A stretch of DNA of 62,129 nt, filler included, from Sphacelaria rigidula (Eukaryota): the NCBI GenBank assembly GCA_964200075.2. It is 9 parts of 9 records of this genome, joined end to end, with 100 filler letters (N's around TTAATTAATTAA, not from the genome) between each part and the next. Parts side by side here need not be neighbours in the genome. Positions count along the whole stretch, not along the records: positions 55,316 to 62,129 come from CAXNAA020017948.1; 8 more parts are not named here. The stretch is one strand, 5' to 3'. Under the pieces are notes generated by a model that had not been told where the DNA came from, made no database searches, and saw only the letters and a list, made by a program, of their open reading frames with translations. This document shows, in pieces, positions 2,362 to 62,129 of the stretch. A program made the position numbers and the translations under genes. How positions within the stretch are numbered: position 1 is the first letter of the stretch; every line of letters starts with the position of its first letter.

Positions 2362-2829
2362 CTAGTCAATTGCGTTGTCTCCGAAGGCCTGTATCTTGGA
2401 AATGAGCTCTCGAAAACGAGGGGTTGCTAAAAATTTAGTTCCAAGATCAGCAAGCTGGTTCTGCGTAGCGATATATCGAACAGCAATCTTTCCCGACTCA
2501 ACTAGTTCCTGAACAAAAAAGAAACGAAGGGCAATGTGTTTAGTGCGACCGCTGTATGTACGATTACTGGCAACGCGAATGGCTGACTTGTTGTCTATAT
2601 ACACCGGAACAGTGTTGAAGGTTGATCCAAAACCGAGCTCGAGCATCATATTGGAGCAGAAGACAGCTTCCTTCATCCCGAGCGCTGCAGCCACAAGTTC
2701 CGCTTCCATGGTAGATTGAGCCGTCATACTCTGCAATCCCACTCTAAAGCTAACTGGAGCCTTGGACAACGTGATGATGTACGAAGAGGTGGACTTGACG
2801 TTGTCTGGGGTTATTTCCCCAATTGGCAT
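2362..2829 (-). pseudogene. Copia RNase H domain
   Basis: AQSTMEAELVA...VYIDNKSAI...RTKHIALRFFFVQE...QLADLGTK. Confidence 0.9.
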
Positions 2830-4387
2830 CTGAAAACGCCGTAAGCTTAAAGTTGTCTTTCTTGCATGTGATACAGAAATCGATGGTGCCAGCCAGGTAC
2901 CGAAGAAGGTGCTTCGCCGCCCCCATGTGAGCCTTGGAAGGTTTCGTCATCGCTCGTGCAAGTTGGTTCACGGCAAACAAGATATCGTAGCGTGTGACCT
3001 GGGCAAGGTAAATGACACTCCCGACAATAGCTTGGAAACTCTTCGTTCGTTCCGCATCAAGCTGTTCAGATTGTTGCACAACTGTCGAAAGTTCTGGCCC
3101 GACTCCTGGGGTGTTCACCTTGTTGCATCCGTCCATGCCAAATTTCTTGAGAGTGCTCCTGACGTAAGATGCTTGCGTGACGGAAACGATACCACAATTC
3201 AAATCGGGCGAAATTTCCATGCCAAGCACCAGAGATGCATCGCCCAAATCCTTCATCTTGAAGCGCGCCGTCAACTTCTTTTTGAGAATGGACAGCACCG
3301 CATCATCTCCCCCAATTAGAATCACGTCGTCCACGTACAAAGCCAAGATCCCAGCAACGTTGTTGTGTCCTTCGGCGATGTTCGTCGTGGATTGTTTGGG
3401 ATCTTCTAAGACATATACATACACGCACGGGTCTGACTTGAGCGGCAGAAATCCAATTTCCCCGAGATAGCCATCGATGGTGAGGTACCAGTGACGCGGT
3501 GCGTCTTTCAAGCCATAGAAAGCCTTCTTAAGCAACATCACGCACCGCTCACCTGTCTGCGAGTCCGTATCTTGGTACCCCGGGGGCAGTTCCGCGTACT
3601 GCGGGTTATCGAGCACTGCGTTGACGAAGGCTGTCACTACATCCAGCTGTTGGGCAGACCAACCAAGTGCAGCCACTGCGGCAAGGAGCATCCGAATGCT
3701 CTGTAGTCGACAGACAGGAGCGTAGGTTCCACCACAGTCAATCCCAGGAACTTGACTCCAACCTTGTACAACGACGCGTCCTTCAAACAACCCGTTGGGC
3801 TTAAGCTTGAATACCCACCTAGTGCCGAGTAGTTTCGCCCCGGGAGGGACTTTTGATAGCGGTATCCTCTCAAAAACACCCAGTGTTAAGAGGCTGTCAA
3901 ATTCCATCTTGGTGGCTTCTCTCCATCTGTCAGCTTCAGGGAGTGCCATGGCCTCCTCGAAGGTGTTGGGGACAACAATTTCGCGGTCTGAATCCAGCCG
4001 TCCATGCATTTGAGTGCTGGTAGCGGCGTAAGCGTACTCAACGACCGTAAACCACTCTTCATGGCCTACGTCTGGCAAGTTCGCCTTAGCAAAGAAGGAA
4101 ACGTTGGAATCAACCAACGCGGGGTATGAGAGTCGATTCAGTTGGCGTCGTGTTCGAGCACTTGTTGTTCCATCACCAGAATTTGTTGATTGTTGAGGAT
4201 TACTCCGTGTACCCATTCGTGACACTGATGATGTGTGCGTATGGTTGGTCGCTCCCCCTGCCTCCAAGGGTGTCACAGTGGATTTGGAGTCCTGCGCGCT
4301 AGATAGATGGTCCATGAGGACGTTCCAGTCGCCGGGCGTATTGATTTCCACCGGAGGGTAAGAGGGAGACACAGTGGACACGCGCAA
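2750..4387 (-). pseudogene. Copia reverse transcriptase (RVT_2)
   Basis: LGTRWVFKLK, QLDVVTAFVNA, LKKAFYGLKDAPRHW, LALYVDDVIL, AFSDANW, then a frameshift into RNase H. Confidence 0.95.
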
Positions 4388-4453
4388 ATCTAGTTGCGAT
4401 GCATGTTGGTGGAAGTCCCGTAGAAAGTCGTCCTGGCTTGTGTACTTGGAGTC

Positions 4454-5015
4454 TCAACCACGCAGGGTGTCTCCGTCAGCGCAGTCCGCAGGTGGCAGGA
4501 GATGTGCGGGTGCTTCGATGAAGGCGACGTTCCTACTTTCGATTACCTTCTTGCCGACTGGGTCCCATAGTCGATATCCCTTGCTATCGAAAGCGTAGCC
4601 CACTAGTCGGGCAGGAACAGCCCTGAGTTTCAACTTTGGGACATACGTTTCGATGTGTACAAAGGCTTGTGATCCAATGACACGAGTGTACGACAGATCC
4701 GCCTCTACTCTGTGAAGATGTTTGTAAGGCGTCCCCATCTTGAGAGCGGAATATGGCACGCGGTTGGACACGTGCGCAGCAGTCATCAGTAACTCGCCCC
4801 AGAGAAGGGCAGGTAAACCAGTGGAAGCAAGCCAACAACGAACCATCCCAAAAAGGACACCACTAACCCGTTCTGAAATTCCGATTTGTTGCGGAGTAGC
4901 CGTGGCAGCGAATTACAACTTCACGCCAGAGTTGATGCAGTGTTCCCTGAATTCTTTCCCGATGTACTCACCTCCTTTGTCTGTGCGAAGCCTGTGGACA
5001 CGCCTCCCCATCGGC
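4454..5015 (-). pseudogene. Copia integrase core and SH3-like domain (in-frame stop)
   Basis: Minus strand reads RVHRLRTDKGGEY...KL*FAATATPQQIGISER, then LPALLWGELLMTAAHVSNRVP and LVGYAFDSKGYRLWDP...ESRNVAFIE. Confidence 0.9.
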
Positions 5016-5888
5016 TTAGTGCGCGAAAAGTTTAAAGGTGTCAAGGGCGTCGCTCTTAGACTTCATCAGATGAAGTGTGGTCCGGCGGCTGAAGACGTCG
5101 GTGATTTTGCTTACGGGCTGAAAACCCCCTAGGGCAGAGGGTGAGATTGGTCCCATCAAGTCACCCATGAGCAGCTCAAAGGGAGCCGACACGTTGTACT
5201 TGGTTGTCTTGGGGTGTGGCTGCTGCTCACTTTTACCGAGTTTGCACACGTCACATGCAGGCAGCAAGCCCTCGTAGCTGACTCCGTTTCCAGCCGTCTT
5301 CCTGAGGATGTCCAACGTTCTTTCACAAACGTGTCCAAGTCCTTGATGCCAAAGTTTCGCTGTCGAGCTCACGCTCATGGCTAGTGTAGGAGTCTTTGAG
5401 TCCGAGGCATCTAATTCCATATCAAAGGTGAAGATATCGTTATATCGCGCCATAACGTCCAGCGGGATCACATACGACCCTGCCTCCAAGCGTGGATGCT
5501 GGCGGTCGAAGATAGTTGTTATACCCTTGCGCGTTGCAACCATCACATAGAAAAGGTGCCGTCCCAGGCCCGGTACAAGATGAGCGCTCAAAGAAATTCG
5601 TTGCTTCCGTTCGTAAGAGTCCTTAATCGTATCAGGTACTGTTGCCTCGGCCACAGCATGCAATACATGATCGCCCGCGGTAGTGATACGGTACGGCGTT
5701 GTAAGCAAGCGGTAATCAGGGAGTCGTTCGAAGACGCCAGGCATAGACGCATTATCGATGTAATGCCCAGACGAACCAGAGTCGACAAGGAGTTTTAGTG
5801 TGGTAGGAGAGCTGGCGGCAGAGGCCACAGGGTCCGCCGTTGAAGCACAACAAGAACGGACAAGTCCGCCAGTAGCCATCAGCGCCAA
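5016..5888 (-). pseudogene. Copia aspartic protease, GAG-pre-integrase and start of integrase
   Basis: LLVDSGSSGH; LWHQGLGH...CDVCKLGK; FELLMGDLMGP. Confidence 0.9.
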
Positions 5889-6815: not shown

Positions 6816-6915
6816 NNNNNNNNNNNNNNNNNNNNNNNNNNNNNNNNNNNNNNNNNNNNTTAATTAATTAANNNNNNNNNNNNNNNNNNNNNNNNNNNNN
6901 NNNNNNNNNNNNNNN
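6816..6915. other. Artificial contig spacer (44N-TTAATTAATTAA-44N)
   Basis: Palindromic linker with stop codons in all six frames, inside an N run. Confidence 0.98.
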
Positions 6916-32341: not shown

Positions 32342-32614
32342 CCCCCCCCTTCCCCGCAATCCCAACCCATCTAGCCCNNNNNNNNNNGGGCACAGTCTCG
32401 AAGGGCTGGGGGGGGCAGTGGACACACAAAAAAGCGAAACAACAAAAGGGGTCCCCCCCCCCCCCCCCCCCCTCCCCCTTCACCCCGCTCCCCCGGGACG
32501 AGAGAACAGGAAAGTGGCGATTGCTGTACAGCACGGTGCCCGGGCCATCGTCCGGAAAACTGGGCCCCTTCGTCGCAGACGTATTCCAAGATATCCGTCC
32601 TGATGAAAAACGAA
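29195..32614 (+). CDS. PAP/fibrillin-family protein, two internal exons (29195..29249 and 32510..32614)
   Basis: AG/GT-bounded exons join in phase 1 to give ELNALNPIAEPAWSPLLAG-KWRLLYSTVPGPSSGKLGPFVADVFQDIRPDEKR, matching the fibrillin L.ALNP...P..SPLL.G.W.L.Y[ST] motif. Other exons were not found in the contig. Confidence 0.8.
29721..30476. mobile_element. MITE with ~120-bp TIRs inside the fibrillin intron
   Basis: CAGCGCGAGCGGG...AATTACCCGTGGGCTCGACTAGACCGCC...AAAGCTTTGCTCAAGGCAGTGTGG is mirrored at 30360..30476; TA on both flanks (TTA/TAA context). Confidence 0.8.
32222..32300 (+). mobile_element. Extreme 3' fragment of LINE family B (similar fragments at ~10970, ~30810, ~31678)
   Basis: CCGTCTCGAAAGGGATGCG.GGTCAATGG...ACGACTAAGGCAAGC, encoding SRNGAPSRKGCGVNG, as at the end of ORF 55564..56034. 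Confidence 0.7.
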
Positions 32615-55315: not shown

Positions 55316-55384
55316 AGAGACAGCCATGGCTTTTACACTGCCTCATGGGTGTCTAACCAGGCTGGAGGGGGGGGGGGGTTGGGG

Positions 55385-56570
55385 GTGTATGAATTTGTTG
55401 CTTGCCTTTTTCGTTTGACGATTGAACACACACCCTTTTCGAGAAGGTTCTCTAGTGGGGGGAAGGGAGGGGGGGCGTCCTCATTTGCTGCTTACCTTGA
55501 TGGTTGGACCTTTGACCACGCATCTTTTTCGAGACGGAGCACCGTAGCACCGGGGGATCGTCCTCAATTTCTGCTTGCCCCAGTCGTTTGACCATTGACC
55601 ACGCATCCCTTTCGGGATAGGGCACCGTCCCTACTCCAAATAGAAACACCTGCAACGTTCAGGCGCCCATTGCGTTTCTTCCATTTATTACACAAAAACG
55701 GTTCGCGTATCTTATTCTCGTCCTGTTTCGCCGTCTCTGGCCACCATCTATCTCCTAGCACAACCATCGTATTTTCGCTGTCTAATGCATAAAACGATTT
55801 CATGCCACCTTCGTTCGCGTCCCGCCCTTCCCTCTCTAGCACGTCCCGTTCCTCCTTGTACAGTTCACATTCTGCCACTAAATGACTTCTCCTCCTTATT
55901 GCTTTGCCAAAGGGACAATCCTGTGCATCTACTTTCTCCTTCTCTCGACGACTGGTAAATCTCTTCTTTGTGGCAGGTTCAGGTCCCCCACCCGAGATTG
56001 CAGCTTCAAATTTTCGCCGCGTCCATCGGGCCATGCAAATATGTTTCCATCCTTACCCCCTCTCCCAATCCCTCATATATCTTCTGTGTTCTTCCTCGTC
56101 TACTTTGCGTCTGAGGGCTTCTTCTCCCCTTATTTCCATCATGTCTCTCACTCTCCCGCTCCGTTTACCCGTGGAGTACGCCCTAGGATTGGTTTTCATT
56201 AGCTATGGATACTCTCCATCCTACTCTTTTCACCCATGCCGACACCTTACTTGTTTCCATCCTTGCCCAACTCTTGCTTGCGCTCTGTTTTAGCGTGTCT
56301 CGGGAGTGTTCTTCCTCCCTTTCTACTTTTCCTCTCGCCAAACAGTGTAGTCCAACTCCATCGCAATTCCTTTACTCTATTTTCGTCATTTCGCTACGAA
56401 CTCCGAATACCAGCACTACTAGTATTACACACGTCCACACTTTACTTCTCCATACGCCCTTTCTCGCCGTCTCTATCTCGATCTCTATCGAGAGAATCTC
56501 CAGCTTGTTCGTTTCGAGGGTATTGGTGGGATGCAGTCAACGTACTGGAACATGCCAATCCTAGTACTTG
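55385..56570 (-). mobile_element. LINE family B 3' remnant (C-terminal CCHC-like region), decayed
   Basis: CPFGKAI...SHLVAECELYKEERD...LGDRWWP...SRKGCVVNG resembles the zinc-knuckle end of a non-LTR ORF2; the terminal motif recurs locally and elsewhere in the window. The upstream boundary is approximate. Confidence 0.7.
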
Positions 56571-59103
56571 TTGCGGGTCTGGTGTCTTGAAGTGGGGAGG
56601 AAGATTAGATGGCGATGGATAGCCCCATCCTGTTTTCGGACAAGAAGGAGCCTCCTGCCCAGTCCTTATTGCCCGCGGCACTATTTGGCCCATAGGCACG
56701 CTCAAAAGTTGATGAAAGTCGATTGATTTGCTTTGCCTAGGCAATGGCCGTGTCTCCTTTGCGTTAGGATTAGATGTTGATTGATCCAGGAGGAGCACAG
56801 GCAGAGCCCGTATCTGTCTTTTGCCACTATCTCATTCCGGCAAAAAAAAGGATGCGTCGCCCCAATTTCGTCTTTATCTTTTTTGTTGCCGTAAGAAATG
56901 TCGGGATCAACTTCTGTCCAGCCCACATGGTACTCTTTTTCTAGCCGTAGTGGCCGAGTGCAACACACAGGAGAGATGAGGAAATGGCAAGATATTTACC
57001 GGTCTAGTACAACTTGCCCGAGTATCTGACGCAGGAAGATCTTGTTCTGCTCTGTCGTATATGTGCATAAAGCATGCAGCATGGAAGTATGTTCTTTGTG
57101 TTGGCTTGCTCGGTGAAATAAACGGAGCGCACGCTTCACCAGTGGGCGTGACCGACGCAATGCCGCCCGTCCAACTATCAATGCTGCAGTGCGTCGCGTA
57201 GTGTGTTTCACGCTCTTCGGCCTTGCGCTTGCTGCACAGATAGCGTGCGTTGCTCTGTGACTGCCGTACTGCGTAGTAATATGTTGTGCACTCAACACTA
57301 TACAGTCAGTTTGTGCATTTCCGTTATATTTCAGGTCATAGTGAGCCCAGCATACACGCGCCGACGTCATATAGTACCCCGCCAAGCACAATATATGTGG
57401 CGACGATTTGTAGCATCACCAATGCAGCTGATGAACACCATCGATAGCCACGACATGGCACAGCTCAGCAGCAGATTCGTATCATCCCGACGATGAACAC
57501 TGTGTGTCTTCGGGAACTCAGGCTCTTGTAAATCCTATTTTATACAATCAGGAATCATGTGTAGTACAGACCCTCGAAAAGTATGGAGTTACGGCGACCA
57601 AATACTTCCCGTCCACGCCACAGCGCAGCCGATGAAGCATTTTTGGACATCACACCGCCGGCTCATTTACCGCGTTCCTCTAGTGAATCTCGGAGTTGCT
57701 TCGTCCATCCAGGGTACTATTGTGGCTGCAATACATTTGCCGACGATGTTCGTGGCACTGCCACTAATTTGTGCAACCATGAACCCAAGAGGAAGGTAAA
57801 AACAAGAGGCTGGCGCGAACCCCGCACCCGCAGGTACCTTGGCACGCCGGCGCGCACCTGTTGAAATCTTTGCCTGCTAGTACCAACAAAGAACCGTGTT
57901 TCTGCGATGCGTCTCGGCGTTGTCGTAGCATATGGTGCCATGTAGACCGAGTGTGCATCTAAACGGTGATATTAGATCTTGTCACTGCAGTACTCTTAAT
58001 GCCAACTCACTGTATAGCTTTTGTTTCAGTTTTGATCACCACAGTGGCAAGTAATTCAACTCTCTGGGAGACTCCACAAATCTTGCAAGGAGCGGACGCA
58101 ATCGTTGCACAAGTCGGATACTACCAAAACTTTCCCAGAGGCTGCAGAGTGATACTGACAGCACAGTCACCTGGGTAGATTTTCGGTCAGCGATGGAGGT
58201 CTTGCCACAGCTGATACGATCAAAACCCTTTCAGGATTGTTGCTGGTGTGACTTAGATATCGATTTCCAGACAAACCTCGTTTATTATCGTCATTGCTCT
58301 CCCGGAGTTCGCAACACAGACCAGCAGCTGATACTCTGTAGCGGCTTGAAGAGCTGTAGCGGCTTGCAGAGCCCCTGCAGTAATACGTGCGGTACATTAT
58401 ATACACGCGCTTTCGAGTCCTCCAGTCCAAGAGTTCAACATCGCCGTGACCCTTCTCCTGAGCCATGTATGACCCGTGCATTTTTGCAGGCGATGTTTAA
58501 CACAAAAGCTGCCCATCCCTCACCACACGCGCCCGTTTTATGTTTACTCACGTGCATTGCGTATGTGATGCTGCATAGCGATCGCTGAATCCTTCGGTGA
58601 TGTCGTCTGCCTCTTCACTTTGCACAATGATTTCTAGCTGGCTCGTTCTGTCTGACGTACAAACCCTGAGTTCTGTATCACTGAATACATCAATGTCAGA
58701 TATATGTGATACGGCTGAGTATGCTTTAGCAGTGGCGTTGTACTTCACATGTTTTGTGTATTGACCATCCTGCTATTGTTGTATATTTCATCCCAATCCG
58801 CTCTCGATCCCTTCCGCGATTATGTAGAGAACGTCCCATCCCATGGACTCATTTTGCGAGTATCTTTGTAATTTTCGGGGTCAGCTTTACATGGAGAGTC
58901 GTTTGCGTGTGACGGCAGGCGGCTATATTTTTTCCGGAGTATGTGCCGTGAAAGTAACGCCACCTGTTCTGCGAGGCGTTTCAACTCACTTTCACCCGTG
59001 GCTCACGAGGTATTTTCTGCCGTTGTGATGTTTGTGCTTCCGTGAGCAGTTGGTTTCCAAGGGAGCACGACACGGAGGACCCCGTGGTTGACGTAGCCAG
59101 AGA

Positions 59104-61437
59104 GTGTGCATTACCAAAGGTTGCTCCAAGCCGTCATCTCGTGGTGTACAGGGCTACGAGGCGGAGGTCTGCTCCAACCACGCCAGGGTAGAAAAGATGG
59201 ATGTGAACAAGAAGTGCGGCTACGACCGCTGCTCCACGCTTCCGTCGTATGGCGTGGCGGGGAGCAAGAAGGCAGAGTTCTGCTCCAAGCATGCGAGGTC
59301 GGGAATGGTTAATGTGGTGAAGAAGAAGTGCGGCTATGAGAGCTGCTCGACAAAGCCGTCGTATGGCGTAGCGGGAAGTAACAAGGCGGAGTTTTGCTCC
59401 AAGCATGTGAGAGAGGGAATGGTGAATGTGGTAAGCAAGAAGTGCGGCTATGAGGGCTGCTCCACGCAGCCGTCGTATGGTGTAGCAGGGAGCAAGGCGG
59501 AGTTCTGCTCCAAGCATGCGACGATGGGAATGGTGAATGTGGTGGACAAGAGGTGCGGCTATGAAGGCTGCTTCACGCTTCCGTCGTATGGCGTGGCGGG
59601 GAGCAAGAAGACGGAGTTCTGCTCCAAGCATGCGAGGTCGGGAATGGTGAATGTGGTGAAGAAGAAGTGCGGCTATGAGGGCTGCTCGACGAAACCGTCG
59701 TATGGTGTAGCAGGGAGCAAGAAGGCGGAGTTTTGCTCCAAGCATGCGACGATGGGAATGGTGAATGTGGTAAACAGGTGCGGCTACGAGGGCTGCTTCA
59801 CGCACCGGTCGTTTGGCGTGGTGGGGAGCAAGAAGGCGGAGTTCTGCTCCAAGCATGCGACGATGGGAATGGTGAAGGTGGTGGACAAGAAGTGCGACTA
59901 CGAGGCCTGCATCAAGCAGTCGTCGTATGGTGTGGCGGGGAGCAAAAAGGCGGAATTCTGCCTCAAGCATGCGAGGTCGGGAATGGTGAATGTTGTGCAC
60001 AGGACGTGCGGCTACGAAGGCTGCTCGACGAAGCCGTCGTATGGTGTAGCTGGAAGTAACACGGCCGAGCTCTGCTCCACGCATGCGAGGTCGGCAATGG
60101 TGAATGTGGTGAACAAGAAGTGCGGCTACGTGGGCTGCTCCACGCTTCCGTCGTATGGTGTAGCGGGAAGTAACAAGGCGGAGTTCTGCTCCAAGCATGC
60201 GAGGTCGGCAATGGTGGATGTTAAGCACATGAAGTGCGCCTACGTGGGCTGCTCGACCATGCCGTCGTATGGTGTAGATGGAAGTAACAAGGCAGAGTTC
60301 TGCTCGAAGCATGCGAGTTCGGGAATGGTGAACGTGGTGAACAAGAAGTGCGGCTGTGAGGGCTGCTCCACGAAGCCGTCGTATGGTGTAGCGGGAAGTA
60401 ACAAGGCCGAGTTCTGCTCCACGCATGCGAGGTCGGGAATGGTGAATGTGGTGAACAAGAAGTGCGGCCACGTGGGCTGCTCCACTATTCCGTCGTATGG
60501 TGTAGCGGGAAGAAATAAGGCCGAGTTCTGCTCCAAGCATGCGAGGTCGGGAATGGTGAATGTTAAGCACAGGAAGTGCGGCTACGAAGGCTGCTCCACG
60601 CTTCCGTCGTATGGTGTAGCGGGAAGTAACAAGGCCGTGTTCTGCTCCAAGCATGCGAGTTCGGGAATGGTGAACGTGGTGAACAAGAAGTGCGGCTACG
60701 AAGGCTGCTCGACCAAGTCATCGTTTGGTGTGGCGGCAAACATGAAAGCGGGGTTCTGCCCCAAGCATGCGAGATCAGGAATATTAGACGTGGTGAGCGA
60801 GAAGTGTGAGAAGGGGTGGTTGAAATCAACTGTCGATAAGAGGCACACCGTTGATGAGGCGAAGGTCTGCCGACAACATACCTTTGCACACGATACAGCT
60901 GCGGCGCCCGACACCGCGAAGCTTCACAGTGGGGAGGGCACCCCCCTCCATAGTCCAACAAAGGTTGATGGAGGAAGCGTTGCCGATGTACGAGGAACAA
61001 AACGCAAGCACCCGGGATTCTCGGGTTCTGTTATAAACGACGGTGTTGGTGCTCGCCGGAGTGCGTTTGCCGGTCCCAGGCAGGTCGTCAGAACAAAACA
61101 TCCGGCTTCTGGGGCTGGTGAGATGTTTTTAGAGGCGAGTGCAGGAGATTGGATGGAGGTAAAGCTAGCAGTCCGTTCTGCAACACACGGTGGCGATACG
61201 GGCAGGGAGGGTCGCGAGCAGCCCGGCCGTTCGATTGATTGGACCAACGAGGGTCGTCGTAGTAGTGTCTTTGGCAGTGGCAGTATCAGTTCGGGGCGGC
61301 TTTGTGGTTCGCCGGCCATGGCACGTGGACGCCTGGGCACGTTTCATGTGGACTTTGAACAGGTGGAGGAGAATTCGAACGTGAAGTTGGAGCTCGGAGT
61401 GTCTAGTCGTCCTCCTCGGGCATACGACACATTGTAG
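59104..61437 (+). CDS. EsV-1-7 cysteine-rich repeat protein (14 intact + 2 degenerate 38-aa repeats, low-complexity C-terminal tail)
   Basis: 777-codon open frame with consensus CGYEGCSTxPSYGVAGSxKAEFCSKHARSGMVNVVxKK, the EsV-1-7 motif known from Ectocarpus virus 1 and brown algal genes such as IMMEDIATE UPRIGHT. Start uncertain: GTG 59104, splice acceptor at 59100, or ATG 59197. Confidence 0.92.
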   Translation: MCITKGCSKPSSRGVQGYEAEVCSNHARVEKMDVNKKCGYDRCSTLPSYGVAGSKKAEFCSKHARSGMVNVVKKKCGYESCSTKPSYGVAGSNKAEFCSKHVREGMVNVVSKKCGYEGCSTQPSYGVAGSKAEFCSKHATMGMVNVVDKRCGYEGCFTLPSYGVAGSKKTEFCSKHARSGMVNVVKKKCGYEGCSTKPSYGVAGSKKAEFCSKHATMGMVNVVNRCGYEGCFTHRSFGVVGSKKAEFCSKHATMGMVKVVDKKCDYEACIKQSSYGVAGSKKAEFCLKHARSGMVNVVHRTCGYEGCSTKPSYGVAGSNTAELCSTHARSAMVNVVNKKCGYVGCSTLPSYGVAGSNKAEFCSKHARSAMVDVKHMKCAYVGCSTMPSYGVDGSNKAEFCSKHASSGMVNVVNKKCGCEGCSTKPSYGVAGSNKAEFCSTHARSGMVNVVNKKCGHVGCSTIPSYGVAGRNKAEFCSKHARSGMVNVKHRKCGYEGCSTLPSYGVAGSNKAVFCSKHASSGMVNVVNKKCGYEGCSTKSSFGVAANMKAGFCPKHARSGILDVVSEKCEKGWLKSTVDKRHTVDEAKVCRQHTFAHDTAAAPDTAKLHSGEGTPLHSPTKVDGGSVADVRGTKRKHPGFSGSVINDGVGARRSAFAGPRQVVRTKHPASGAGEMFLEASAGDWMEVKLAVRSATHGGDTGREGREQPGRSIDWTNEGRRSSVFGSGSISSGRLCGSPAMARGRLGTFHVDFEQVEENSNVKLELGVSSRPPRAYDTL
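59215..60804 (+). repeat. Coding tandem repeat array, 114-bp unit x14 (two units 111 bp)
   Basis: All unit-length changes are whole codons, so the frame is preserved. Confidence 0.95.
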
Positions 61438-62129
61438 GTGACACTCAGTGTTGCGCCAAAAACAAAAAGTAAAATGTTGGCCGATTTTCGTGTGCAAGTC
61501 ATCGTATAAAATACCAGCTTAGAGCATCCCTAAAGTAGGTATTATCCGCACGATCGAGGAGTCCCTTGGGGAGGATCTACGGCCCAACACGCGGCATATC
61601 TCAAATTCAATGTTTGAGGCTGGATCGTCGGCGCAAGTCGCAGGCTGAAAAAGTGATCATGTCCCGCGTTCGGTGTTTTGCATGGTGTTGCTCGGTACGG
61701 GTGCCTTGCCGTCCCCATGGCACGCCGACGGTTCGCGGCCACGGTTCGTGTTCCCGCCCGTCACCACTCCCAGGATGTAGTTCAAGGAGTGTGGAATTCG
61801 CCTTGAAGAGAAGCATCTCAATTGCTTTCAGCATAAATAAGAACGGCGTGATCGTTTGCATGCATGCATGTCTGGCGGCGCAGGTGGTGGCTTTGACTTT
61901 GAAAACTTGGACTCGACCATTATAAAGTGCAGTATAATTGCTGACGTTATGTACTATCGACTCGAGTGCTCGCCCTTTTTTGTTTTTTCACAACGAGCAA
62001 TGACTCGAGTGCTTGCGCTATCAACCCTTCTGGGACCGACCCCCCACTAAGACGGGGTTGATCATGTAGAGGGAAATGTACCAATTAAGATACGCTTCAG
62101 GCACCTGGCGGGAAAAACTCTATATCTTG

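Follow-up and report, generated by a model that had tools for sequence, protein, structure and literature searches.

A long EsV-1-7 array of Sphacelaria rigidula with unit-specific residues: a candidate modular DNA-binding protein

Here we analyzed a stretch of 62,129 nucleotides from Sphacelaria rigidula (assembly GCA_964200075.2), called the window in what follows, which consists of nine parts joined with 100 filler letters between them and whose positions 55,316..62,129 come from the record CAXNAA020017948.1. On the plus strand of this last part, within an open reading frame (ORF) at 59104..61437, lies the repeat part of an intact brown-algal gene that encodes an EsV-1-7-family protein. The main finding is that residue 9 of the repeated Cys3His module differs from unit to unit inside an array, yet in algal-type members of the family it is kept between orthologues and is almost never acidic, and that homologous arrays in giant viruses stand before a probable nuclease; these features make the question of the ligand experimentally approachable. 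We suggest that the protein may bind DNA in the nucleus as a zinc-finger array, with residue 9 contributing to module-specific recognition, and we give this reading about an even chance of being right. If a readable code were to emerge, the family would offer a new programmable DNA-binding scaffold; if not, this is simply a young and ordinary gene of a family already known.

The ORF has 777 codons, including its GTG first codon and the stop at 61435-61437, and is matched in 14 stretches by the Pfam family PF19114, EsV_1_7_cys (E = 1.1e-212; 687.9 bits against a cut-off of 25). A regular-expression scan finds 15 units of the form C-x4-C-x15/16-C-x2-H, one divergent (unit 0) and 14 canonical (units 1-14), and Tandem Repeats Finder reports 13.9 copies of a 114-nt period at 59203-60782, with 83% matches, 0% indels and a score of 1963. 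Unit 0 (CITKGC...C..H) and its linker occupy 59107..59214 and keep four of the four ligands. The canonical modules fill 59215..60804, starting at 59215, 59329, 59443, 59554, 59668, 59779, 59893, 60007, 60121, 60235, 60349, 60463, 60577 and 60691, and are 38 amino acids (114 nt) long except for units 3 and 5 (37 amino acids); the ligands C1, C6, C23 and H26 are invariant in 14/14 of them. They are followed at 60805..60879 by a degenerate half-unit (CEKGW...VCRQH, C-x20-C-x2-H) which is without the C-x4-C knuckle and is kept in the Sphacelaria paralogues. The original prediction had described 14 intact units with four invariant ligands, had assigned them to EsV-1-7 and had placed the end of the array at 60879, which is exactly the end of the half-unit; all of this was borne out, the family assignment also by a predicted-structure match (Foldseek against BFVD) to the viral EsV-1-7 protein Q8QNQ2 (E = 8.7e-23, 50% identity over 190 columns). 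Judged by sequence, the gene adds a member to the EsV-1-7 family, already known to be expanded in brown algae. No further EsV-1-7 unit is found in the other 59 kb of the window, and the ORF has no N-terminal non-repeat domain.

The array grew through recent tandem duplication, and its nearest units are 91-96% identical in DNA outside codons 9 and 36. Position 9, counted over the 38 repeat positions, is the third residue after the second Cys and reads L,K,Q,L,K,H,Q,K,L,M,K,I,L,K from unit 1 to unit 14, exactly as it had been listed before. The corresponding codons (59239..60717, plus strand; starts at 59239, 59353, 59467, 59578, 59692, 59803, 59917, 60031, 60145, 60259, 60373, 60487, 60601 and 60715) are CTT AAG CAG CTT AAA CAC CAG AAG CTT ATG AAG ATT CTT AAG. 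With six residues and an entropy of 2.26 bits, this is the most variable of the 38 positions, followed by position 36 in the linker (2.21), position 18 (1.57) and position 37 (1.43). The variants beside position 9 (FTHR in unit 6, IKQS in unit 7 and STKS in unit 14) and those of the second, linker patch (VKKK, VSKK, VDKR, VNR, VHRT, VNKK, KHMK and KHRK) are all present as quoted earlier. Near-identical units still differ by several bases at the variable codons; for example, units 3 and 5 have CAG against AAA and GAC against AAC, and units 11 and 13 have AAG against CTT. The variation is peaked at positions 9 and 36 and not confined to them, with an entropy of at least 0.9 bits at 12 of the 38 positions.

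The same two patches are seen in other members of the family. In these per-position statistics, from which units that are not exactly 38 amino acids long, lack M31 or are gapped in the alignment were excluded, the mean within-array entropy of 43 other arrays is highest at positions 36 (1.77) and 9 (1.69) and then falls as a continuum, and in 16 other homogeneous arrays positions 36, 35, 38 and 9 are the most variable, followed by a drop. Over 162 arrays (804 units) the within-array excess identity is lowest at position 36 (0.07), followed by 33 (0.08), 37 (0.08), 9 (0.09), 38 (0.12) and 35 (0.13), as against 0.16-0.37 at the other 17 variable positions. The coupling of adjacent units at the same position, measured as mutual information, is 0.25-0.64 for the scaffold and only 0.116 for position 9, and the pattern at positions 9 and 33-38 recurs in 62 nuclease-fused arrays. 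Because the entropy, excess-identity and coupling tests agree across other arrays, the two patches can be taken as a real, family-wide property which is not peculiar to this array. As far as these alignments tell, the scaffold is array-specific and residues 9 and 33-38 are unit-specific.

As to whether the variation is neutral or functional, we compared ortholog-like groups, that is, fetched proteins at 70% identity or more, which may include paralogues; a pair of isoforms (P0224/P0228) and a pair of partial sequences (P0143/P0223) were kept out, and 18 groups with 78 usable units remained. Of these 78 units, 14% vary at position 9, whereas 45% vary at position 7 and 41% at position 29. In the 11 groups that are without the C-terminal domain of the viral proteins described below, and that come mostly from named brown algae, it varies in 3/49 units (rank 31 of 38), and the 20 other variable positions of the same groups vary in a pooled 23.3% (binomial p = 0.0015, Fisher p = 0.0027); inside the arrays of these groups the residue is unlike in 85% of unit pairs. 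Positions 29, 7 and 3 change there in 31-43% of units, and position 35 varies in 6/49. In an Ectocarpales-wide set of nine sequences, two of which are N-terminally incomplete, position 9 reads R,R,P,S,R in five units wherever the unit is present. Position 33 is dimorphic (Asn or Asp), with mostly Asn in the units of the window: 80% of within-array pairs differ and 1/49 orthologous units varies, so that, on these alignments, it is a stronger signal of unit identity than position 9.

The composition of position 9 bears on the kind of ligand. Asp or Glu occupies it in 1% of 570 distinct units, as against 10-41% at positions 2, 3, 4, 7, 15, 25, 28 and 29, and in 1.5% in nuclease-fused arrays. Its repertoire in the 570 units is led by R (155), Q (101), I (65), T (43), H (35) and K (34). 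The net charge averages +2.7 per unit, and the present array has 84 Lys and Arg against 35 Asp and Glu (isoelectric point 9.3).

The second line of evidence on the ligand comes from giant viruses. A homologue search of 5.8 billion proteins gave 165 matches at E <= 1e-3 among 8000 scored candidates, and a C-terminal domain defined by a hidden Markov model (HMM; matches of at least 100 amino acids) is present in 67 of the 120 best homologues of the window protein and in 224 of 368 fetched proteins. It belongs to a large giant-virus family (P0138, P0020, P0083 and P0229-P0368) whose proteins have 5-10 EsV-1-7 units and, behind them, this conserved domain of ~150 amino acids; P0138, for example, has a DUF4379 treble-clef finger, then EsV-1-7 units, some of them with C-x2-C, and then the C-terminal region. 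A search with P0138 of 1.84 billion representatives gave 6344 proteins at E <= 1e-3, of which 1083 were at E <= 1e-30. In 80 aligned sequences of the domain, R386, D388, D405 and E406 are invariant and P387, E403, Q408 and H409 are found in at least 90% (RPD...EVDE.QH). VSR, DUF559 and DUF2726 are described, in the cited passage, as one PD-(D/E)XK group that includes a homing endonuclease (PMC3424549). The viral proteins are thus probably an array joined to a probable nuclease, with the look of a natural zinc-finger-array nuclease. Ninety-four viral stretches encode relatives of one array-domain protein, and 80 loci were kept (L002-L081), many of them on contigs labelled as giant virus, with two array-domain loci on one contig (L032 and L035). 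As queries for viral loci, the window fragment and P0138 gave no viral relatives. P0036, in which, as in P0038, a helicase-associated (HA) domain is fused to the array, was also tried as a lead to viral array loci and was dropped, for it gave only a helicase/HA/methyltransferase gene without an array.

Because homologous arrays are joined to a probable nuclease, the fusion favors DNA as the ligand of the array. The mechanism that we propose is that the protein would act in the nucleus as a zinc-finger array on a polyanion, most likely DNA. In each module residue 9, possibly together with residues 33 and 35 and the adjacent linker, would make a module-specific contact, and the order of the residue-9 identities would help to set the recognized sequence, as the contact residues do in C2H2 finger arrays.

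Besides the possible paralogues in the ortholog-like groups, a number of results weigh against this reading; they come from the tests of selection, the viral relatives, the nuclease assignment and the fold searches. By the Nei-Gojobori method over all unit pairs, the ratio of the proportions of non-synonymous and synonymous differences (pN/pS) is 0.45 over all codons. Codons 9 and 36, a post hoc choice, reach 1.48, and the 34 codons that are left when 18 and 37 are also set aside have 0.35. By parsimony on leave-one-codon-out trees, codon 9 takes 12 steps against a mean of 3.7; its first and second positions take 7 steps where ~3.9 are expected under neutrality (1.94 per site at four-fold sites), with a Poisson estimate of p ~0.1. 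Among the five sister pairs that the unit tree contains, codons 9 and 36 are not enriched in change (4/30 nucleotides differ, against 56/534 elsewhere; p = 0.40); the rate is 0.15 at their first and second positions and 0.167 at four-fold sites. Because of the pN/pS, tree-step and sister-pair tests, the scaffold is seen to be under purifying selection and codons 9 and 36 to evolve at about the neutral rate. The array thus gives no proof of diversifying selection, and the excess of non-synonymous change that would go with the original prediction was not found, either here or in the viral unit pairs.

It can be argued from such rates that there is no code at all, and that in a young array residues 9 and 35-38 are only the least constrained surface and linker sites, which are the first to drift. 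The rate of codons 9 and 36 is indeed close to neutral, with no significant excess, inter-domain linkers are commonly loose, and position 36 behaves between orthologues as an average variable site (11/49 units in the 11 groups, p = 0.53). In the giant-virus relatives, moreover, position 9 is among the three fastest positions, with a pN/pS of 0.67, that is, below 1. Yet the least constrained site should also be the fastest between orthologues, and in algal-type proteins position 9 ranks only 31st; Asp and Glu are excluded from it, and it is invariant in five units of the order-wide orthologue set. Drift alone seems to us an unlikely explanation.

The reading of residue 9 as a recognition residue also has to be weighed against the viral sequences themselves. 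In giant-virus DNA (16 disjoint pairs and 68 unit pairs, with a proportion of synonymous differences of 0.44) position 9 is unlike in 44%; only positions 11 and 25 have a higher pN/pS, and none of the positions is above 1. In the seven nuclease-type groups it varies in 8/29 units. Conservation of position 9 between relatives is therefore not universal. Residue 9 appears to behave like an identity residue in the algal-type proteins and to turn over fast in those of the viral nuclease type, which fits conserved targets in the algae and retargeting in the viruses, and fits also a general difference in constraint. As for the recognition code of the original prediction, the part that concerns position 9 finds support in algal-type proteins, with its conservation between orthologues, its variation within arrays and its near lack of acidic residues, whereas the linker part does not, position 36 being average. 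The claim that variation is concentrated at a few sites stands for the peaks at 9 and 36; against it are the 12 positions of at least 0.9 bits in this array and the ~20 of 38 positions that are variable when 448 units of the family are pooled. Because so many positions vary family-wide, what is seen is a gradient and not a code of two residues.

A simple programmable code, in which one module reads a fixed number of bases, is in our opinion quite unlikely. One can also imagine a wider scheme in which EsV-1-7 would be a natural modular DNA-recognition scaffold, each module reading a short DNA step mainly through residue 9, which would draw on R, Q, I, T, H, K and L and hardly ever on an acidic residue. 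The viral arrays would then aim Vsr-like nucleases, in the manner of natural zinc-finger nucleases, the brown algae would have domesticated and multiplied the arrays as transcription factors, and L-K-Q-L-K-H-Q-K-L-M-K-I-L-K would spell a target of ~14 steps; we regard this scheme as distinctly improbable.

The nuclease assignment, too, is drawn from matches below the cut-offs. The C-terminal region of P0138 matches DUF2726 with E = 9.1e-5 (22.6 bits against a cut-off of 24.7) and DUF559 with E = 0.025, DUF2726 is found at E <= 0.01 in one of 80 members of the domain, and NCBIfam, PHROGs and PADLOC do not recognize the domain. Its HMM gives no match in the window protein (P0001), in the six frames of the window or in the named brown-algal proteins that were checked. 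The nucleic-acid ligand of the original prediction is in this way supported by the homologous arrays fused to a Vsr/DUF2726-like domain in giant viruses, with the nuclease call itself sub-threshold, but the window protein is without that domain.

The original prediction had raised pathogen recognition as a further option, and one can suggest that the array is a receptor that diversifies rapidly in an arms race with viruses or other pathogens. Brown algae have a greatly expanded and clustered set of family members, according to the cited passages of the brown-algal genome study (10.1101/2024.02.19.579948), giant viruses have the family too, and the array is young, with units that differ at few exposed-looking sites. 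However, no position has a ratio of non-synonymous to synonymous rates (dN/dS) above 1 in three tests, the post hoc choice of codons being allowed for, and position 9 is conserved between algal-type orthologues. A Pfam scan gives no signalling or immune domain in the window protein, and IMM, the one characterized family member, is a developmental regulator in the passages cited (PMC7457493, PMC12993054). The option gains no support from these data and is, in our judgement, extremely unlikely.

For structural models we return to the module as a candidate DNA-binding unit. Units 1-5 were modelled in AlphaFold2 with 105 homologues as the alignment and without metal, and the model has a mean predicted local distance difference test score (pLDDT) of 93.1 and a predicted template modelling score (pTM) of 0.62. 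Blocks of 10 residues score 91-97 except for the first and last (80 and 85); since all the inner blocks score so, the inter-unit linkers are predicted as confidently as the modules. A single-unit model has a pLDDT of 80.9. In most of the five units residues 12-14 (YGV) and 31-33 (MVN) form strands and residue 22 (F) a bridge, and in the first two modelled units only there is a one-turn helix at 24-26, running after C23 to H26. The module is predicted to be a small zinc knuckle with a β-hairpin, a one-turn helix that supplies the C-x2-H ligands and a closing MVN strand, and successive modules would be joined by basic linkers of four residues.

Fold searches did not place the module in a known group. 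Foldseek against the PDB gave best E values of 0.79 (five-unit model) and 6.7 (single unit), the best VIA-align Z scores are 3.1 and 2.8, both with RING domains, and sequence-profile searches of the PDB gave no matches. There was also no usable match in the ESM Atlas outside PF19114 and no tblastn match in the phage collection. These negative results do not make the fold a new one. The weak rows of the fold searches are small zinc modules (nsp13 zinc-binding domain, ArfGAP, RING, LIM, ZZ, B-box and PHD). Among predicted viral structures there are 29 matches at E <= 1e-3, which include EsV-1-7 and proteins of marseille-, pitho-, cedrat-, klosneu-, chloro- and Tetraselmis viruses, and four of the 29 are named endonuclease and one DNA primase.

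These weak resemblances raise the question of whether the array is a scaffold for protein-protein interaction, like LIM, RING, B-box or PHD domains, with residue 9 and the linker contacting protein partners. The only fold resemblances, weak as they are, are indeed to protein-binding zinc modules (RING at Z 2.8-3.1, LIM, ZZ, B-box and PHD), and unit-specific residues that are conserved between orthologues suit any specific ligand. Moreover, in the cited passages, no Ectocarpus member of the family carries another Pfam domain, DNA-related ones included (10.64898/2026.04.27.720984). A polyanion fits better, however, with a basic array in which Asp and Glu are nearly absent from position 9 and the linker. 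Most of the closest homologues carry the Vsr/DUF2726-like fusion, viral relatives are named endonuclease or primase, and P0036 and P0038 have the HA fusion. We hold the probability of a protein scaffold to be low.

The DNA-binding reading invites a comparison with known modular systems. C2H2 fingers have the pattern C-x2-4-C-x12-H-x3-5-H and a conserved linker of the TGEKP type. The outline of C2H2 arrays such as those of KRAB-ZNF and Zif268-type proteins may be compared with that of the present array: both have tandem small zinc modules on a conserved scaffold, are basic, grow by tandem duplication and seem to have few positions that differ between modules yet are kept in orthologues. However, the units here are Cys3His with x4, x15/16 and x2 spacing, no zf-C2H2 match appears in the Pfam scan, and linker positions 35-38 are among the most variable ones. 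The models predict no recognition helix, only a three-residue helix in two of five units, and one clear identity residue per module takes the place of three or four, so that the array is not a member of this class.

TALE repeats are helical, metal-free and 33-35 amino acids long, and their variation is confined to residues 12 and 13. As in TALE, PPR and PUF proteins, the repeats here are near-identical and in tandem, with variation that peaks at one or two positions and is independent in each repeat. Here, however, there are metal-ligand sites (Cys3His), and the modelled fold is β and coil, not helices. The 12 positions with high entropy show a variation far less confined than in TALE repeats, to which the original prediction had likened it, and the array is not a TALE member either.

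Treble-clef fingers of the GATA and ArfGAP kind have the spacing C-x2-C-x16/17-C-x2-C. The order of elements in our model is similar, with a knuckle, a hairpin and the last two ligands at a predicted helix start, and some family members use C-x2-C-x16-C-x2-H (P0138). The local matches to ArfGAP fingers are weak (root-mean-square deviation 3.2-3.8 over 30-32 columns, probability 0.06-0.08), with RING at Z up to 3.1. There is no significant match in fold or sequence, the last ligand here is His, and the modules form long tandem arrays. The fourth likeness is with nucleases of the Vsr/DUF559/DUF2726 kind, which include a group I intron homing endonuclease in the cited passage (PMC3424549), and with engineered zinc-finger nucleases; 67/120 of the best homologues share this layout of targeting module and nuclease. 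The window protein is without that domain, and the nuclease nature of the viral domain is suggested by the sub-threshold matches and the RPD...EVDE.QH motif.

Within its own family (PF19114), to which Ectocarpus IMM and the phaeovirus protein EsV-1-7 also belong, the protein shares the C-x4-C-x16-C-x2-H repeat and the 38-residue period, with a score far over the Pfam threshold, and its layout of an array and a tail without another domain is typical of brown-algal members. It exceeds most members in the length of its array, the units are unusually alike (83% DNA identity), and its type of tail is seen only in Sphacelaria proteins among those compared. In the passages cited, EsV-1-7 is among the largest gene-family expansions in brown algae, with 2018 proteins in 31 genomes, and IMM (IMMEDIATE UPRIGHT) has a specific N-terminal domain before five repeats (10.1101/2024.02.19.579948), against 15 units here; its function is given as unknown (PMC7457493). 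The idea that these proteins may be zinc fingers or transcription factors has been published before (10.1101/2024.02.19.579948, PMC12629598), and the hypothesis that EsV-1-7 proteins are zinc-finger transcription factors is stated in the cited part of PMC12629598. Per-position variability, a recognition code and nuclease fusions find no mention in the passages of the EsV-1-7 literature that were covered, as distinct from whole texts and supplements; within these limits, the evolutionary signature of residue 9 and the array-nuclease architecture of giant viruses are not in print.

In P0050, P0094, P0145, P0147, P0154 and P0073 the plant motif Zf_WRKY19 (PF24906) gives partial matches that coincide with the first half of EsV-1-7 units, which hints at a distant link between the WRKY19 and EsV-1-7 motifs. 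To our knowledge, the EsV-1-7 family is described as absent from land plants. Pfam matches of the window protein to Phe_ZIP, TT_ORF2a and DUF5967, and of homologues to Gallidermin, CTD, TnpV, FAM86 and ATP_bind_3, were taken as spurious on the ground that no stretch passes alone. NCBIfam and PADLOC gave no match for the window protein, and PHROGs gave one weak match with no passing stretch.

The C-terminal tail (185 amino acids, 60880..61434) has no Pfam domain and aligns to the last residues with the tails of Sphacelaria rigidula proteins. These are the best relatives of the window protein (P0002 at 65% identity, others at 47-51%) and, from the alignments, its closest relatives are paralogue-like. 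Three motifs of the tail are conserved among them: a basic cluster, RGTKRKH here and RGTKRKR in the paralogues (60991..61011), which may act as a nuclear localization signal; MKVE, which is MEVKLA here (61150-61173); and NVKLELG, or SNVKLELG, near the C-terminus (61378..61398), all on the plus strand. By consensus rules we take RGTKRK(R/H), MKVE and SNVKLELG to resemble a nuclear localization signal and SUMO sites; VKLE in NVKLELG presumably fits the hydrophobic-K-x-E SUMO consensus.

At the 5' end of the gene, the first in-frame ATG is at 59197, and unit 0 thus lies upstream of it; Sphacelaria gene models likewise begin at a Met within a linker. In the inspected region 58843-59103, in-frame stops stand before unit 0 at 59026-59028 and 59089-59091, and there is a possible 3' splice site (cag|) at 59098-59100. 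Contigs from the sequencing runs X1-X3, whose RNA nature is only guessed, match the unique tail without differences (X1 at 61041-61186 and 61176-61360), and an X2 contig at 61393-61584 spans the stop codon; X1-X3 have almost no cover over 57000-59050, where X5 has cover. Joints in the runs X1, X2, X3 and X5 are confined to the repeat array or the terminal high-copy repeat, and none marks an upstream intron. An antisense ORF of 506 amino acids (59134-60654, minus strand) runs through the array and is most likely a by-product, because the periodic sequence has no stops in that frame.

Elsewhere the window is eukaryotic DNA with few long ORFs and ~49% GC. On the minus strand, 24225-24758 matches the non-repeat part of P0073 (residues 286-429) in tblastn with E = 5e-14 and 31% over 192 amino acids, with one stop, and by this resemblance may be the decayed tail of a second EsV-1-7 family member or a shared mobile sequence. 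Pieces of a Ty1/copia-type retrotransposon lie at 2750-5888 on the minus strand (RVT_2, E = 1e-50; gag_pre-integrs, E = 4.4e-7). There are 714 N in total, in paired runs of 44 nt at eight places ~6914 nt apart, the first at 6816-6915, and at 32378-32387; they look like masking and not like assembly gaps. At the end of the window, 61959-62129 is present in very high copy, with a summed contig depth of ~389,000 in X5 against ~100-700 in the flanks and with many rearranged joints, and is probably a dispersed or satellite repeat.

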